Shown: in pieces, positions 784 through 6,720 of the stretch | Numbering within the stretch: position 1 is the first letter of the stretch | Layout: each line of letters begins with the position of its first letter | Virus record (IMG/VR): IMGVR_UViG_2657245015_000003 | Strand: one strand, 5' to 3' | From: a virus | Taxonomy: Duplodnaviria; Heunggongvirae; Uroviricota; Caudoviricetes | DNA: 7,482 nucleotides | Position numbers and translations under genes: made by a program | Notes under the pieces: generated by a model | What the model was told of the DNA's origin: nothing | What the model saw: the letters and a program-made list of their open reading frames with translations, nothing else | Database searches by the model: none

Positions 784-1449
784 TCAAATAAAACCAGCTG
801 CCTTCCGGCGTTCGTATTCCTGTTTCAGCCGTTCAATTGGCGTTGGCCCTTGCGGGTGTTTCGCCCCTTCCAGTTGTCGTCGCACTGGCGGAACACTCAT
901 CCCGTTACCAACATGCTTTGCCCATTTCGTCAGTTGCCGTTCCGCAAGTCGTTTTAACTCACCCTGCGTCATCTGGCGCTCAATCCCTCTGGTACGCATT
1001 TCGAGGCAGATGTGGTACAGCACAGGCTGTGGCCACGGGTATTTATCACTCCCGTCGTATCGCCAGGATTCATTGCGCCAGCGCCGGTACTCTTCCATTA
1101 CTGCATCCACCGTAAGACCAAATGGATTTGCCCCACTCTCCGAAATCAGTGCAACAAACTCAGCCAGGTCCGGGGGCCACGTTTCACCCGCCCGGCAGCG
1201 GTCCATGCACTGACGGCAGACCAGCCGGATTTGCTGTTCAGTCATCGCGCCAATCTGGGCAATCCAGAGCTTCGAAGGTGCGGCCCCGTTCTTCTGTGTC
1301 CAGCGGTTCGAATACACCTCCCCCATAAGCTCCCACAGCTTCCAGACCGTTTCCGTCGCTGATAAATCCGTTTTCACGTTCCCACTGCTCACGTGCTGCC
1401 CGAATTTCCTGAACTGCCCGTGATGCGGTGCCACCTGGTGCTGCTGCAT
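784..1449 (-). CDS. Replication protein P-like (lambda P family helicase loader)
   Basis: 221-aa ORF. Segments such as WPPDLAEFVALISES and YPWPQPVLYHICLEMRTRG...ELKRLAERQLTKWAKHV resemble recalled lambda P regions (FLPSPGQFVAWCREE; YPWKSNAHYWLVTNLYQNMRANALTDAELRRKAADELVHM). AGGGGG lies 6 nt upstream of the ATG at 1449. Lies directly downstream of the O-like gene. Start is uncertain: the ATG at 1245 overlaps the O stop as ATGACTGA but has no clear SD. Confidence 0.65.
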   Translation of the reverse strand: MQQHQVAPHHGQFRKFGQHVSSGNVKTDLSATETVWKLWELMGEVYSNRWTQKNGAAPSKLWIAQIGAMTEQQIRLVCRQCMDRCRAGETWPPDLAEFVALISESGANPFGLTVDAVMEEYRRWRNESWRYDGSDKYPWPQPVLYHICLEMRTRGIERQMTQGELKRLAERQLTKWAKHVGNGMSVPPVRRQLEGAKHPQGPTPIERLKQEYERRKAAGFI

Positions 1450-2278
1450 GGTTTACCCCCTTGCTGACTGGTTTAACCTGCGCCCTGACGTGATTTACGT
1501 GACGGGCGAATTTCTGCTCCCACTGAATCTGCGTAAACACTTTCCCCTCCGCTGCCCAGTAGTCCCGGAAGGCGGCAAGTTCAGCAGGTGTAAATTCTGT
1601 CTCCGGCAAAGCCATCCCCCACAACGCAGCCCGTCGTCGAAAATCCCGTGACGGATACCAGCTATCGGTCATCGGAAATTTTCCGATGGGTTCGCTCAGG
1701 CCATCCAGGAATACAAGGGGTGCTGCCTGTAACGACAAAACTTCCTGCTCACTGGTCGGAGCACTCTCGCGTGCGTTATGTGTGGGGTTTAGATCTTTGG
1801 GTTCCTTTGGGTTCCGTGATCCGTTTTTGGGTGTCTTTGATGGAAAATTTGGGTGTCTTTGGTTATTTTCCATGCAGCTAAGAGTTCCGTTTTTGGGTCT
1901 GTTTTGTGCTGAAACATAACCATTTTCGGTACTGTTTTTATTAACAGCACCAATTTTACCCACCTTTAAAGACTCCCGTTTTTGGGTGTATTCAGGCTCG
2001 GCAACACTTTCTTCTACACCGATAAGTCGGTACACCACAATTTGCTTTGTTCTGCCTTTTCTCTCACCGGTATCAACAATTAACCCAATCTCCATCAGGT
2101 GTCGTAAGCTGTCCTGCACAGTCTTTTTGTTTAGTTCCGTTACTTCTGCCAGTGCAGATACAGACGGGTATGCACACAAATCGGCACCGCACATATCAGC
2201 AAGCCAGGTCAATACAGACTTACTGGATGAACTGCCGGTTTTCACCTTTTTAGCCCATCGTAGTGCATCGATACTCAT
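1238..2278 (-). CDS. Replication initiation protein, O-like: N-terminal HTH DNA-binding domain, iteron-encoded linker, DnaT-like C-terminal domain
   Basis: Long reverse ORF (track 1238..2353). Preferred start is the ATG at 2278 (MSIDALRWAKKVKTG...), with AGGGG 6 nt upstream. The N-terminal region SVSALAEVTELNKKTVQDSLRHLMEIGLIVD is HTH-like. A low-complexity PKNG/KTPKNGSRNPKEPK linker is encoded by the DNA repeats at 1795..1990. The C-terminal FPMTDSWYPS...FRDYWAAEGKVFTQIQWEQKFARHV resembles the DnaT C-terminal domain as I recall it. Confidence 0.7.
   Translation of the reverse strand: MSIDALRWAKKVKTGSSSSKSVLTWLADMCGADLCAYPSVSALAEVTELNKKTVQDSLRHLMEIGLIVDTGERKGRTKQIVVYRLIGVEESVAEPEYTQKRESLKVGKIGAVNKNSTENGYVSAQNRPKNGTLSCMENNQRHPNFPSKTPKNGSRNPKEPKDLNPTHNARESAPTSEQEVLSLQAAPLVFLDGLSEPIGKFPMTDSWYPSRDFRRRAALWGMALPETEFTPAELAAFRDYWAAEGKVFTQIQWEQKFARHVNHVRAQVKPVSKGVNHAAAPGGTASRAVQEIRAAREQWERENGFISDGNGLEAVGAYGGGVFEPLDTEERGRTFEALDCPDWRDD
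1795..1990. repeat. Iteron array plus AT-rich segment inside the O-like gene: candidate phage origin of replication
   Basis: TTTGGGT core occurs at least 6 times (about 1796, 1806, 1826, 1848, 1892, 1981). The longer unit CCGTTTTTGGGT occurs three times (1821..1832, 1887..1898, 1976..1987). An AT-rich stretch at about 1900..1975 lies next to it. Lambda ori has the same layout: iterons within O, then an AT-rich region. Confidence 0.5.
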
Positions 2279-2801
2279 ACAAACCCCTGGCAGACATTTG
2301 TTTATCTGCAAAGTAATATTGATATTGCTGACGATACGCATGCTTGAAAGCAATAGCTTTTTCTATAAGCTCGTCAGTCTCACGTTCCACAACAGCTGGA
2401 TCCGCAAAAAGCAGCCCGGACTCCACCACATCGCCATATTCTTTGTTTAATCCGGCGATCATGTACGTAATGCTTTTTCCATCACTGATCTCACGATACA
2501 ACCTGAAATCACTAATTCGGATAGCCTCCATAATTGCCGGAATCAGCGCCGTGAATTTTTTCCGCTTATCCCTGGTGTCGATAGCTTTCCAGCGTTCGAA
2601 TATCTTCACCCGGTTAACGCCCAGCGCCCGTTGATCAACCTCGCCATCATTAAACGTGACGCGTTGAACATCGATGTTCGGGCGTTCTTTCAGAGCCCAG
2701 AATGCTTCCGTGATTAATATCGTCGCTTGCTCCTGTGTCATTCCTGGTCGACATACCCAGGCATCCAGAGCCTCACAAACCTGTTCAGGGGTGATTTTCA
2801 T
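2250..2801 (-). CDS. YdaT-family protein (CII-position gene of the Cro-side operon)
   Basis: 183-aa ORF immediately downstream of, and overlapping by 17 nt, the Cro-like gene. It starts MKI and contains ALIPAIMEAIRISDFRL, reminiscent of the recalled K-12 YdaT (MKI...KLIPAILAILPRELRHRL). Longer than the 140 aa I recall for K-12 YdaT. Confidence 0.6.
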   Translation of the reverse strand: MKITPEQVCEALDAWVCRPGMTQEQATILITEAFWALKERPNIDVQRVTFNDGEVDQRALGVNRVKIFERWKAIDTRDKRKKFTALIPAIMEAIRISDFRLYREISDGKSITYMIAGLNKEYGDVVESGLLFADPAVVERETDELIEKAIAFKHAYRQQYQYYFADKQMSARGLYEYRCTTMG

Positions 2802-3012
2802 TGTTCAACCGCCCCGCCCGCTTTGCCTTACGATATTCGTCATAAACTTTGGGGTCGTACTGAAGTTCCCCGCCGGATGCCTCCTGTAGACGCATCGCGC
2901 GACCTTCAGGAACCAGTTTCCCCCATGCAGCAACGCTTGCCAGCCTAACGCCTGCGGCATTGGCAAGCTTTGTTTTGCTGCCAAAAAACGCTATAGCATC
3001 AATTTTCAACAT
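2785..3012 (-). CDS. dicC: Cro-position small regulator, DicC/YdaS-like
   Basis: 75-aa ORF divergent from the dicA-like gene. AAGGAG lies 6 nt upstream of the ATG at 3012. The motif FGSKTKLANAAGVRLASV is HTH-like. Position and size match dicC of Qin. Confidence 0.7.
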   Translation of the reverse strand: MLKIDAIAFFGSKTKLANAAGVRLASVAAWGKLVPEGRAMRLQEASGGELQYDPKVYDEYRKAKRAGRLNNENHP

Positions 3013-3088
3013 ATCGAACTCCTTAGATTTTCCTAAGGAAACTAGATCGTAGAGAAACCTAAGTCAAGAAAAATTAGAATTACCTAAT
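3013..3088. promoter_or_regulatory. Divergent promoter/operator region between the dicC-like and dicA-like genes
   Basis: 76-bp AT-rich intergenic region. It holds a perfect inverted repeat CCTTAG-N6-CTAAGG (3021..3038) and further CCTAAG/CCTAAT half-site copies at 3058..3063 and 3083..3088. Confidence 0.5.
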
Positions 3089-3496
3089 ATGAAAAACGAA
3101 ACCTTCGGTGCTCGCCTCTTATACAGGCGTAAAAAATTAAAACTGTCTCAGGCCGCATTAGGTAAGCTGGTCAAAGTGGCTCACGTAACAATTTCTCAAT
3201 GGGAAAGAGATGAAACACAGCCAGCGGGGAAGAGATTATTCGCACTGAGCCAGGCGCTTCAGTGCTCGCCGACTTGGCTTCTTTTTGGAGATGAAGATAA
3301 GCAACCAGGCGAACCGATCCCAGATAATCAGCCAGTTAATCTGACAGAAGATCAAAAAGAGTTGCTTCAACTGTTCGACGCACTGCCTGAGTCAGAGCAA
3401 AAGGCTCTGTTGTCAGAGATGCGTGCTCGAGTTGAGAATTTCAACAAACTTTTTGAAGAACTACTCAAAGCTCGCAAAAGAAGCGCAAATAAATAA
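3089..3496 (+). CDS. dicA: DicA-like HTH (XRE/CI-type) prophage repressor
   Basis: 135 aa. The N-terminal region ARLLYRRKKLKLSQAALGKLVKVAHVTISQWERDETQPAGKRLFALSQALQCSPTWLLFGDEDKQP and the C-terminal EMRARVENFNKLFEELLKARKR closely resemble the recalled E. coli DicA. No obvious SD upstream. Confidence 0.85.
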   Translation: MKNETFGARLLYRRKKLKLSQAALGKLVKVAHVTISQWERDETQPAGKRLFALSQALQCSPTWLLFGDEDKQPGEPIPDNQPVNLTEDQKELLQLFDALPESEQKALLSEMRARVENFNKLFEELLKARKRSANK

Positions 3497-3569
3497 CCCC
3501 CTCCCTTTTTTTCGCCACTCTCTGTAATAAAAAGCATAAACTTTCAAATGCTTGTGTTTTTTACATCAA

Positions 3570-3630
3570 AAAACTTAGGTTTTTCTACACAAAAAGCTTG
3601 ACCACAATTCTTAGGTTATTCTAAATTCTA
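3570..3630 (+). promoter_or_regulatory. dicB-operon promoter (PL analogue) with flanking DicA-type operator repeats
   Basis: Candidate -35 TTGACC (3598..3603) and -10 CTAAAT (3621..3626) with 17-bp spacing. Two copies of CTTAGGTT(T/A)TTCTA (3574..3587 and 3609..3622) bracket the -35, echoing the CCTTAG/CTAAGG half-sites of the dicA/dicC intergenic region. Confidence 0.45.
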
Positions 3631-5231: not shown

Positions 5232-5289
5232 TTTCTGGTGACTTTTGGCGGTATCAGTTCTACTCCGTGACTGCTCTGCCGCCCTTTTT
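5232..5289 (+). ncRNA. dicF: DicF small regulatory RNA with 3' intrinsic terminator
   Basis: TTTCTGGTGACTTTTGGCGGTATCAGTTCTACTCCGTGACTGCTCTGCCGCCCTTTTT matches my recollection of DicF at nearly every position. The 3' end is a GGCGG...CCGCC stem followed by a T-run. Lies between ydfC and dicB, as in Qin. Boundaries approximate. Confidence 0.8.
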
Positions 5290-5571
5290 AAAGTGAATTT
5301 TGTGATGCGGTGAATGCGGCTCAGCGCACGCGGAACAGTTAAAACCAAAAACAGTGTTATGGGTGGATTCTCTGTATCCGGCGTTAATTGTTAACTGGTT
5401 AACGTCACCTGGAGGCACCAGGCACCGCATCAACAAAGTTCACTTCGGTGATGAAAGGTAGAGAAAATGTTGAATGTAGCTATTGAAAACCAGAACGGGT
5501 GGAATTATAGTGCACCTGCACCTCATAAAACGGGTGCCGGGCGTGGAAACCCGAAATCATTCACGGCGCAT

Positions 5572-5594
5572 AACCGCGCTCAGGCGGTTTTTTT
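5572..5594 (+). terminator. Candidate intrinsic terminator upstream of the Rha-like gene
   Basis: AACCGC-GCTCAG-GCGGTT hairpin followed by a run of 7 T on the plus strand. Confidence 0.4.
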
Positions 5595-5763
5595 ATGCGT
5601 TAAGCACAGCCACATTCGCATTATGGTGGGGCGTGCAGGGCAGCCGCAAGGCTGGCCGGGTTCCGTGATGACCGGTATTTCCACCCCTGTACGTCTCACC
5701 ACCCTTATGGTCGTGGAAAACCTCGGTGGTGAGTTAATCAAATTCATCGCGGAGGCTGCCATC

Positions 5764-6321
5764 ATGGCTACTATCCTTACCCTTTCTCACCCTGACGTAA
5801 CCATCGAAAATGGTCGCGCTGTCACTACGTCTGTTGCGATCGCCGAGTTCTTTGGCAAACGCCACGAACGAGTGTTGGATAAAATTCGCAATCTGGACTG
5901 TTCAGCAAAATTCACTGAGCACAATTTTGTGTCGAGCGAATACACCGACTCAACCGGGCGCAAACTCCCAATGTACCAAATCACCAAAAACGGCTTCGTT
6001 TTCCTGGTGATGGGCTTCACTGGCAAAAAAGCCGCTGCATTTAAAGAGGCATACATTGCTGAGTTCGACCGCATGGAAGCTGAACTGCGCCAGAATAACG
6101 CCCCGTCTCCCGACAAAATGATTCACGGGGACGGACGCACCCTGGTTATCCGTCTCGACGAACACGGCAATATCAAATTCACTGAAACCGTTCCTGACGG
6201 CGCAATGGTCTGCACCCTGGATACCTTCCTGTTTTATCTGGAGCAACAAGGCTGGACTCTTGTAAACCGGAGCGCAATTAAAAATATGACTGTGGAGCAA
6301 TTGCTAAAAATTCATTGTTGA
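5764..6321 (+). CDS. Rha-family phage regulatory protein
   Basis: The ORF-track frame runs 5467..6321, but the ATG at 5764 has GGAGG 8 nt upstream. The terminator-like hairpin at 5572..5594 lies inside the upstream extension, whose translation looks non-protein-like. From 5764, the segment VTTSVAIAEFFGKRHERVLDKIRNL...KLPMYQITKNGFVFLVMGFTGKKAAAFKEAYIAEFDRME matches the Rha-domain pattern as I recall it. Confidence 0.6.
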   Translation: MATILTLSHPDVTIENGRAVTTSVAIAEFFGKRHERVLDKIRNLDCSAKFTEHNFVSSEYTDSTGRKLPMYQITKNGFVFLVMGFTGKKAAAFKEAYIAEFDRMEAELRQNNAPSPDKMIHGDGRTLVIRLDEHGNIKFTETVPDGAMVCTLDTFLFYLEQQGWTLVNRSAIKNMTVEQLLKIHC

Positions 6322-6520: not shown

Positions 6521-6720
6521 ACACATTATTCGTACTCATTCTGACTGTACATCTCAATACTGGTGAGTCGCTTGATGCAATCACCGGCATGTACAACTCA
6601 ATGAAAGAATGCATGGCTGCCGCAGCGGAACAGAAAATTCCCGGCAACTGTTATCCGGTCGATAAAGTTATTCACATGGACAATAACGAAATCCCGGCAG
6701 GATTAAAAACAGCGCCGTAA
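6517..6720 (+). CDS. ydfD: YdfD-like small protein (lysis-associated in Qin)
   Basis: ATG at 6517 overlaps the dicB stop as ATGA. 67-aa product with a hydrophobic N-terminus (MNTLFVLILTVHL). Position matches ydfD. Confidence 0.65.
   Translation: MNTLFVLILTVHLNTGESLDAITGMYNSMKECMAAAAEQKIPGNCYPVDKVIHMDNNEIPAGLKTAP

Follow-up and report, generated by a model that had tools for sequence, protein, structure and literature searches.

In bacteriophage lambda and the Shiga toxin (Stx) phages, the replication origin lies, in a textbook layout, inside the initiator gene O (PMC7466680). The lambda ori comprises four 18-19-bp iterons and an AT-rich region within O and works with the O/P protein pair; Stx-phage variants have six iterons. 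Other close systems are DopC/DopE, a domesticated lambda O/P-like pair in which an HTH_36 N-terminus and a DnaT C-terminal motif are followed by a P-like protein, and the Rac prophage, which has been described in papers as having an active origin, oriJ. The dopC locus was reported to be without iteron-like sequences (Brezellec et al. 2017, PMC5509034), and Stx-phage replication units with HTH_36 and YdaT have been catalogued with no mention of iterons (PMC8951638). Here we analyse the window, a stretch of 7,482 nucleotides from IMG/VR virus record IMGVR_UViG_2657245015_000003 (Caudoviricetes) that represents the early region of an Escherichia coli lambdoid prophage resembling Rac and Qin. Its O-like replication initiator gene (1238..2278, minus strand, 346 amino acids (aa) from the open reading frame (ORF) and its translation) contains a repeat array at 1795-1995. 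We interpret this array, with a probability of about 80%, as the iterons of the prophage's replication origin, situated where that prophage's initiator gene encodes a linker.

Results

A single-orientation repeat array inside the O-like gene

A reading made from the letters of the window alone (hereafter the sequence-only reading) had reported six or more TTTGGGT copies, including three of CCGTTTTTGGGT, in about 200 bp, and our analysis reproduced both the counts and the coordinates. TTTGGGT matches the window exactly six times, always on the plus strand (1796, 1806, 1826, 1848, 1892 and 1981), so that six cores in a single orientation lie within 192 nt of the initiator ORF. The expected number for the whole window on both strands is 1.48, and 0 of 200 shuffles reached six. 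CCGTTTTTGGGT is present in three exact copies (1821-1832, 1887-1898 and 1976-1987); we found no one-mismatch copies anywhere in the window, and matches with two or three mismatches elsewhere are at chance level. As an unbiased test, we took the highest count of any 7-mer in any 200 nt and compared it with 1000 whole-window and 1000 local dinucleotide-preserving shuffles (the T/G-rich segment 1700-2100). TTTGGGT, with its six copies, is the maximum of the window; the shuffles never exceeded four, and never reached a 12-mer in three copies (maximum two). No further repeat array with such properties was detected anywhere in the window. In a complete, near-identical 44-kb PPompW prophage, the 10-mer ACCCAAAAAC has three copies only, all of them in the O-like gene, and six of the eight copies of ACCCAAA fall in the array.

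Read in the direction of the gene, on the minus strand, the array begins with iteron 1 (1968..1995), a long form with core ACCCAAAAACGG (plus strand 1976-1987) that encodes T-Q-K-R in frame 0 and scores 32.7 with a position weight matrix (PWM). It is followed by a decayed iteron, GGGTAAAATTGG (1950..1961), which was recognized by alignment, lies below PWM calling and forms part of an AT-rich stretch, and by a degenerate long-form iteron of repeat family D1 with core TACCGAAAATGG (1920..1931; PWM score 25.2; 8 of 10 dyad positions complementary). The next long-form iteron (1879..1906; PWM score 35.3) has core ACCCAAAAACGG (plus strand 1887-1898) and encodes P-K-N-G in frame 2. After a short core copy, ACACCCAAATTTTCC (1842..1857; TTTGGGT at 1848-1854; H-P-N-F in frame 1), comes the last long-form iteron (1813..1840), again with core ACCCAAAAACGG (plus strand 1821-1832) and in frame 2. 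The array closes with a 10-bp tandem repeat found by Tandem Repeats Finder (TRF), GGAACCCAAA x2.1 (1795..1815), which contains the short TTTGGGT copies at 1796-1802 and 1806-1812. A longer PWM model calls four copies in the window, with cores at 1976-1987, 1920-1931 (the degenerate one), 1887-1898 and 1821-1832. A total of six or more sites is accurate for cores but not for conserved iterons, since conservation is limited to the long form, with three perfect copies and one or two degenerate ones.

The array codes for aa 98-161 of the O-like protein, and the linker that had been read from it, YTQKRES...NRPKNGT...HPNFPSKTPKNGSRNPKEPKDLNP (aa 97-166), is indeed encoded there. The six cores start at gene positions 292, 381, 425, 447, 467 and 477 (spacings of 89, 44, 22, 20 and 10 nt), fall in frames 0, 2, 1, 2, 1 and 2, and encode TQK, PKN, HPN, PKN, NPK and EPK, respectively. 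With all three frames represented, the repeated unit is one of DNA and not of peptide. Lambda served as a positive control: its four annotated ori iterons, at O aa 117-145, are in frames 0, 2, 2 and 1.

Across the family of homologous genes, the repeat unit is an imperfect palindrome of roughly 24-26 bp with an A-tract at its centre. Its consensus is AACAsTCCC-AAAAAC-GGGACTGTT, in which the arms AACAsTCCC and GGGACTGTT are arranged around AAAAAC. The family PWM has 57% of 10 mirrored positions complementary, compared with 18-37% in shifted registers, and the window copies have 4-8 of 10. The functional unit would be this ~24-26-bp palindrome and not the 7-mer TTTGGGT.

Conservation of the repeat unit and variation within E. 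coli

Conservation of the repeats in homologous O-like genes had been posed beforehand as a refutation test, and the array is present in every homologue examined. An N-domain alignment scan with one genome per species yielded 27 loci. Hits of a protein search with the 97-aa N-domain were nearly all short or partial, and the useful diversity came from genome-contig loci; a set of 80 viral-contig loci consists nearly entirely of E. coli duplicates and is informative only on within-species variation. Over query aa 1-201, tblastn gives 50% identity for Edwardsiella phage EPP-1, an isolated phage whose DNA is 67% identical; it has three exact and two one-mismatch copies of ACCCAAAAACGG, the first at gene position 292, as in the window. 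A CCCAAAAACGG unit occurs at the equivalent place in N-domain homologues from Edwardsiella, Plesiomonas, Enterobacter, Kluyvera, Scandinavium and Acinetobacter lwoffii. By PWM scan, 10 genes from six Enterobacterales genera and A. lwoffii have 4-6 copies each, located past the helix-turn-helix (HTH), with a consensus unit of tTAAACAcTCCCAAAAACGGGACTGTTA; the E. bugandensis gene has a decayed first copy.

When seven Enterobacterales genes are aligned as DNA, CC.AAAACGG...GTT islands alternate with divergent spacers. The CCCAAAAACGG core of the last iteron is invariant in 7/7 of these genes, and all seven keep the homologous position of iteron 1. Where the window has the decayed iteron at 1950-1961, the aligned Edwardsiella and Plesiomonas genes have a perfect ACCCAAAAACGG. 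At the short copy 1848-1854, relatives keep only a CC..TTTT signature, and this copy may, from its alignment, be a half-iteron that is inverted and degenerate. In the remaining Acinetobacter homologues (43-56% identical) the unit, AACAGTCCCAACAAYGG, is related but different and occurs in 5-6 copies, and the Roseibium homologue (32% identical) has GGGGTGTCACCCTGA in four; the copies of either set are spread over three frames. An AGATCT (containing GATC) that closely follows the last iteron on its 3' side, at ~1785-1795, is kept in 7/7 of the aligned Enterobacterales genes within a conserved tail, AAAGATCTAAACCCCACACATA. This GATC may be a Dam/SeqA site or a part of the origin.

The TTTGGGT copies at 1796-1812 are present as originally counted, but the alignment does not extend them beyond E. 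coli: in other genera the 1795-1815 stretch reads GGAATCTACCAAGGAACCATAAAG, and the short copies are specific to the E. coli lineage. For this reason they are probably not conserved binding sites. The copy number of GGAACCCAAA varies, and 2 of the 80 viral contigs (L036 and L038) have three units, which causes a frameshift and a 170-aa product of N-domain plus linker that ends in ...KPHT. The same tail occurs in a 167-aa database protein (P0002), whose peptide sequence suggests a 1-nt insertion in the A-run just downstream that reaches the same stop codon. Such truncated proteins (P0002, P0004) represent dozens of database members. Among 74 scorable E. coli viral contigs, the initiator is intact at 345-346 aa in 68 and truncated in 6. 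We considered programmed frameshifting at C_CCA_AAG as a source of the common 160-170-aa proteins and rejected it; with 68/74 genes intact and truncations at scattered positions, decay or slippage is the simpler reading.

The initiator protein and co-inheritance of its N-terminal domain with the repeats

The O-like protein matches a PHROG family annotated as 'replication initiation protein' (1.8e-90). Its N-terminus (aa 1-89; 2012-2278, minus strand) matches the winged-helix family HTH_36 in Pfam (3.3e-4, 20.8 bits), and a DnaT-like domain occupies aa 201-267 (1478-1678, minus strand; Pfam DnaT 6.5e-17; DnaT C-domains in the PDB at 1e-16 to 1e-19). AlphaFold2 models residues 1-89 as a winged helix-turn-helix, with a predicted local distance difference test (pLDDT) score of 71-94, and leaves residues 90-229 unstructured, with scores <50; a predicted disordered linker thus covers about aa 90-200. 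In this model, the array sits in the linker-coding segment directly after the N-terminal winged helix. All Foldseek matches are generic winged-helix DNA-binding domains with weak scores (E >= 2.5e-3). In a Pfam search, the window protein did not match Phage_rep_O (PF04492), which lambda O matches at 5.7e-36; the N-domain and the N-terminal half of lambda O do both match the PHROG O-like families 678 and 345. The gene had been called O-like in the sequence-only reading, a name that is borne out by the order of HTH, linker and DnaT-like domain and by the adjacent P-like gene but not by membership of Phage_rep_O. The initiator is O-like by architecture and remote homology only.

The repeats are inherited together with the N-domain. 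In a megablast comparison, Rac-SA53 matches the window over 1238-1798 only, which is the DnaT-like half, and the match stops at the 3' edge of the array, placing a mosaic junction with Rac-type ydaU at ~1798. Rac-SA53 YdaU combines an equivalent DnaT-like C-terminal half (85% aa identity) with a DUF1376 N-terminus, and a search of its ydaU gene found no comparable iteron array. EPP-1 has an equivalent N-domain and iterons joined to another C-domain, Phg_2220_C, which has been described as the lambda O C-terminal domain (PMC5509034), and then a strong lambda-P homologue. Since Rac-SA53, with the C-domain only, lacks the array and EPP-1, with the N-domain and a different C-domain, has the iterons, the repeats form one module with the N-domain. 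An ori-specificity module of this kind is already known from lambdoid O genes (PMC7466680). The motif itself changes as the N-domain diverges between Enterobacterales, Acinetobacter and Roseibium. Replication genes follow the initiator in relatives as well: a lambda-P-like gene in Enterobacterales and a gene for a DnaB-type helicase in A. lwoffii.

The AT-rich stretch and other sites

An AT-rich segment next to the repeats had been proposed together with them. It exists, but it is modest, lies inside the array and not beside it, and is built from iterons that have decayed. Within the O-like gene, the lowest GC fraction over 40 nt is 0.30 (1935..1974), compared with 0.50 for the whole gene; these 40 nt lie between iteron 1 and the degenerate iteron, and we regard them as a candidate unwinding element. 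Because Edwardsiella and Enterobacter have two intact iterons in alignment with the stretch, it represents decayed iteron sequence. In some homologues (Acinetobacter, Kluyvera, Roseibium), the GC minimum is found, as in lambda, directly 3' of the last iteron. Within the window, AT content is highest in the operator regions at ~3055 and ~3525. The array contains no DnaA box (TTWTNCACA), for which the sole match in the window, at 6668, is at chance level, and we found neither sigma-70 promoter-like nor intrinsic-terminator-like sites in 1600-3200.

Neighbouring genes

In transcriptional order, the minus strand encodes a P22-Cro/DicC-like protein (2785-3012), a YdaT/cII-like protein (2250-2801; PHROG 'CII-like transcriptional activator', 7e-42), the O-like initiator, a lambda-P-like helicase loader (784..1245; Pfam Phage_lambda_P 1e-15; PHROG 'P-like helicase loader' 2e-63) and a DUF1627 protein (1-750). 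The last of these, downstream of the P-like gene and cut by the window edge, has a weak LigT-like phosphoesterase match at its C-terminal end (aa 209-244, E 3e-5). An ATG of the lambda-P-like gene (1243-1245), a candidate start, overlaps the stop codon of the O-like gene (ATGA). The lambda-P-like open frame runs a further 212 nt upstream, to 1449, overlapping the 3'-terminal part of the O-like gene in a different frame, and the loader matches start ahead of the overlapping ATG (M69), at ORF aa 59 for Pfam and aa 19 for PHROG. PHROG family 15931 (482 positions) matches both the O-like and the P-like protein, and in the PPompW annotation the P start is placed 32 nt past the O stop.

The initiator gene (1238-2278) is 98.5% identical to PPompW prophages of enterohaemorrhagic E. 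coli (EHEC), e.g. LC567818 and LC567822, in which the exonuclease and portal genes are frameshifted. In Actinobacillus phage vB_Apl-pPE4 (PP818812.1; recorded host Actinobacillus pleuropneumoniae), a C-terminal half of ydaU type and a P-like gene have ~90% DNA identity to the E. coli module, an unexpectedly close match for a Pasteurellaceae phage.

The regulatory neighbourhood is Rac/Qin-like, with dicA, dicC and ydaT-like genes and DicF. A DicA/cI-like repressor gene lies divergently on the plus strand (3089-3496), and operator-like repeats, ACTTAGGTTTTTCTAC and TTAGGTTATTCTAA, stand on either side of it in inverted arrangement, at 3015-3087 and 3556-3627, the second set including a 23-bp tandem repeat (3556-3599). 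These are probably the OR-like and OL-like operator sets. Farther along the plus strand, Rfam matches at gathering level identify DicF RNA (5233-5284), isrK (5518-5594) and C4 antisense RNA (5619-5706). A mechanically called ORF of 284 aa (5467-6321) with Ash and Rha Pfam domains overlaps isrK and C4. This arrangement looks like a P1/P7-type c4-icd-ant antirepressor module 3' of a dicF locus, in which the true Rha/ant start is probably an internal ATG near 5764.

Discussion

The sequence-only reading had likened this locus to the classic lambda ori. The comparison holds for the intragenic, multi-frame, palindromic repeats and the P-like gene that follows the initiator, and appears to fail for the arrangement of the AT-rich element. 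As in lambda, direct repeats in one orientation occupy the middle of the initiator gene in several frames, directly past the sequence for the N-terminal DNA-binding domain. The units are likewise imperfect palindromes with CCC...GGG arms and an A-tract, ATCCCTCAAAACGAGGGA in lambda and AACAsTCCCAAAAACGGGACTGTT here, and the lambda iteron, ATCCCTC-AAAAC-GAGGGA, has the same design as the window family. Both systems have a cro gene and then a cII-like gene upstream and a P-like loader gene next, with overlapping stop and start codons, and in both the N-domain and iterons form one mosaic module and the C-domain and P another (PMC7466680, PMC5509034). Unlike lambda, the N-domain resembles HTH_36 (below threshold) rather than Phage_rep_O, the C-domain is DnaT-like, and the iterons are longer (~24-26 bp) and stand farther apart, at less regular distances (26-66 nt, compared with 20-24 nt in lambda). 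The AT-rich stretch is weak (30% GC) and internal, whereas that of lambda has 20% GC and comes right after iteron 4. Since the stretch is modest, internal, composed of decayed iterons and not conserved in position, the order seen in lambda, with iterons first and then an AT-rich element, does not appear to be reproduced here.

The other described systems each share a part of this design. The DopC/DopE pair has the same HTH_36 N-terminus and DnaT C-terminal motif, followed by a P-like protein; unlike it, the window has a prophage gene with a conserved iteron array, as expected for an origin-bearing mobile ancestor type. The DnaT-like half and P-like gene of Rac-SA53 (ydaU/ydaV) are 85-91% identical to those of the window, from which Rac-SA53 differs in its DUF1376 N-terminus and in a gene without a comparable array. 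For oriJ, no coordinates were found in the papers accessible to us. Iteron origins of theta plasmids (RepA, pi, RepE) also pair a winged-helix initiator with direct repeats, and Foldseek lists plasmid Rep N-domains and a Rep-DNA complex with weak E-values. In those plasmids the iterons are usually found outside the rep gene and together with DnaA boxes, unlike the intragenic array of the window, which has none.

If the array is the origin, initiation could, by analogy with lambda, proceed as follows. Rightward early transcription from the cro/dicC-like side would cross the YdaT/cII-like gene into the O-like gene. The O-like protein would bind the ~24-26-bp iterons through its N-terminal winged helix, probably as dimers, and the resulting nucleoprotein complex would destabilize AT-rich DNA nearby. 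The DnaT-like C-domain would then recruit the complex of the lambda-P-like protein and host DnaB, leading to helicase loading.

Several observations weigh against an origin. The literature that we searched, with incomplete coverage, yielded no experimental report of binding or origin activity for this initiator family. The HTH_36 score of 20.8 bits falls short of the 25-bit family cut-off, and the AlphaFold2 model was built on a shallow alignment of 10 sequences. The 3' flank of the array has 50-60% GC and no strongly AT-rich element like that of lambda, and the position of the AT-rich stretch is not conserved in homologues. Helical phasing of the cores and A-tracts (10-11.5 bp) is marginal (p ~0.02-0.06 after choice of the best period), and the iteron cores vary among E. 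coli (gene positions 381, 390 and 391). Finally, the family conserves, in one frame, a peptide motif, (S/T)P(K/N)xG(T/S)RN, with which the last iteron overlaps, so that some constraint at the protein level is possible there.

The missing AT-rich flank also speaks for the alternative that survives best, namely that the O-like protein binds the iterons but that the array is not, or is no longer, the site of initiation, serving instead in copy control, autoregulation or titration or persisting as a relic in a defective prophage. Such a role would fit the two iterons that decayed in the E. coli lineage, the frameshifts in the exonuclease and portal genes of the PPompW relatives, the truncated initiators of 6/74 E. 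coli contigs, and the location of the window's most AT-rich DNA at the operators (~3055 and ~3525) instead of at the array. However, the array is kept in all homologues examined, including those of isolated phages such as EPP-1, 68/74 initiator genes are intact, and the window holds no other comparable repeat array. On balance, we consider this alternative unlikely.

We assign a distinctly lower probability to the repeats being sites for another regulator, either the YdaT/cII-like activator or a host protein, for instance at a promoter that is internal or antisense. Lambda cII has binding sites of this type, direct repeats within coding sequence, and here a YdaT/cII-like gene lies directly upstream. 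Yet tblastn (E <= 1e-3) found no YdaT homologue in the homologous loci searched, although the Enterobacterales genes among them keep the iteron, and we rejected the YdaT/cII-like protein as the repeat binder on this ground. The motif moreover co-varies with the initiator N-domain across three bacterial orders, and neither promoter- or terminator-like sites in 1600-3200 nor a DnaA box in the array were found.

Least probable of all is that the DNA repeats are a by-product of selection for a low-complexity PKNG-type linker: although the region does encode a Pro/Lys/Asn/Gly-rich linker that is predicted to be disordered, and most copies in most homologues are in frame 2 and read P-K/E-N-G, a single 7-12-nt word is read in three frames of one gene (TQKR, PKNG, HPNF, NPKE), as are the Acinetobacter and Roseibium motifs in theirs, the spacings from the PWM scan across the family (26, 56, 55, 25 and 35 nt) are not multiples of 3, the dyad symmetry reaches flanks that code for unrelated residues, and the CC.AAAACGG...GTT islands are kept where the linker peptides have strongly diverged.

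The iteron origin thus remains our preferred interpretation of the array. A bolder extension, which we consider a long shot, is that the N-domain and iterons constitute a portable origin cassette, combined over time with three or more unrelated C-domains (DnaT-like, Phg_2220_C and the Acinetobacter type), with the slipping GGAACCCAAA repeat acting as a heritable on/off or dominant-negative control of replication. The latter would apply if the 170-aa product binds the iterons without recruiting the loader.

We found no description of the iteron of this module in the literature searched, the coverage of which was incomplete. In RefSeq, the locus carries no origin feature; the gene is annotated only as a coding sequence, under the name 'DnaT-like ssDNA-binding domain-containing protein'. 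Of 5426 complete E. coli genomes, 908 (~17%) contain the module, in up to four copies per genome, and it occurs in EHEC prophages that carry type III effector genes and adjoin Stx phages. The locus is ordinary in kind, a lambda layout in a different initiator family, and changes no concept. Its iteron definition would provide a testable origin for widespread lambdoid prophages outside the lambda O type, and would make the module an origin-bearing phage counterpart of the domesticated, reportedly iteron-less DopC/DopE pair. The matched pairs of N-domain and iteron from Enterobacterales, Acinetobacter and Roseibium form a natural series for the study of site recognition by winged helices, and knowledge of the iterons would help to predict the replication compatibility of prophages that reside in the same cell.

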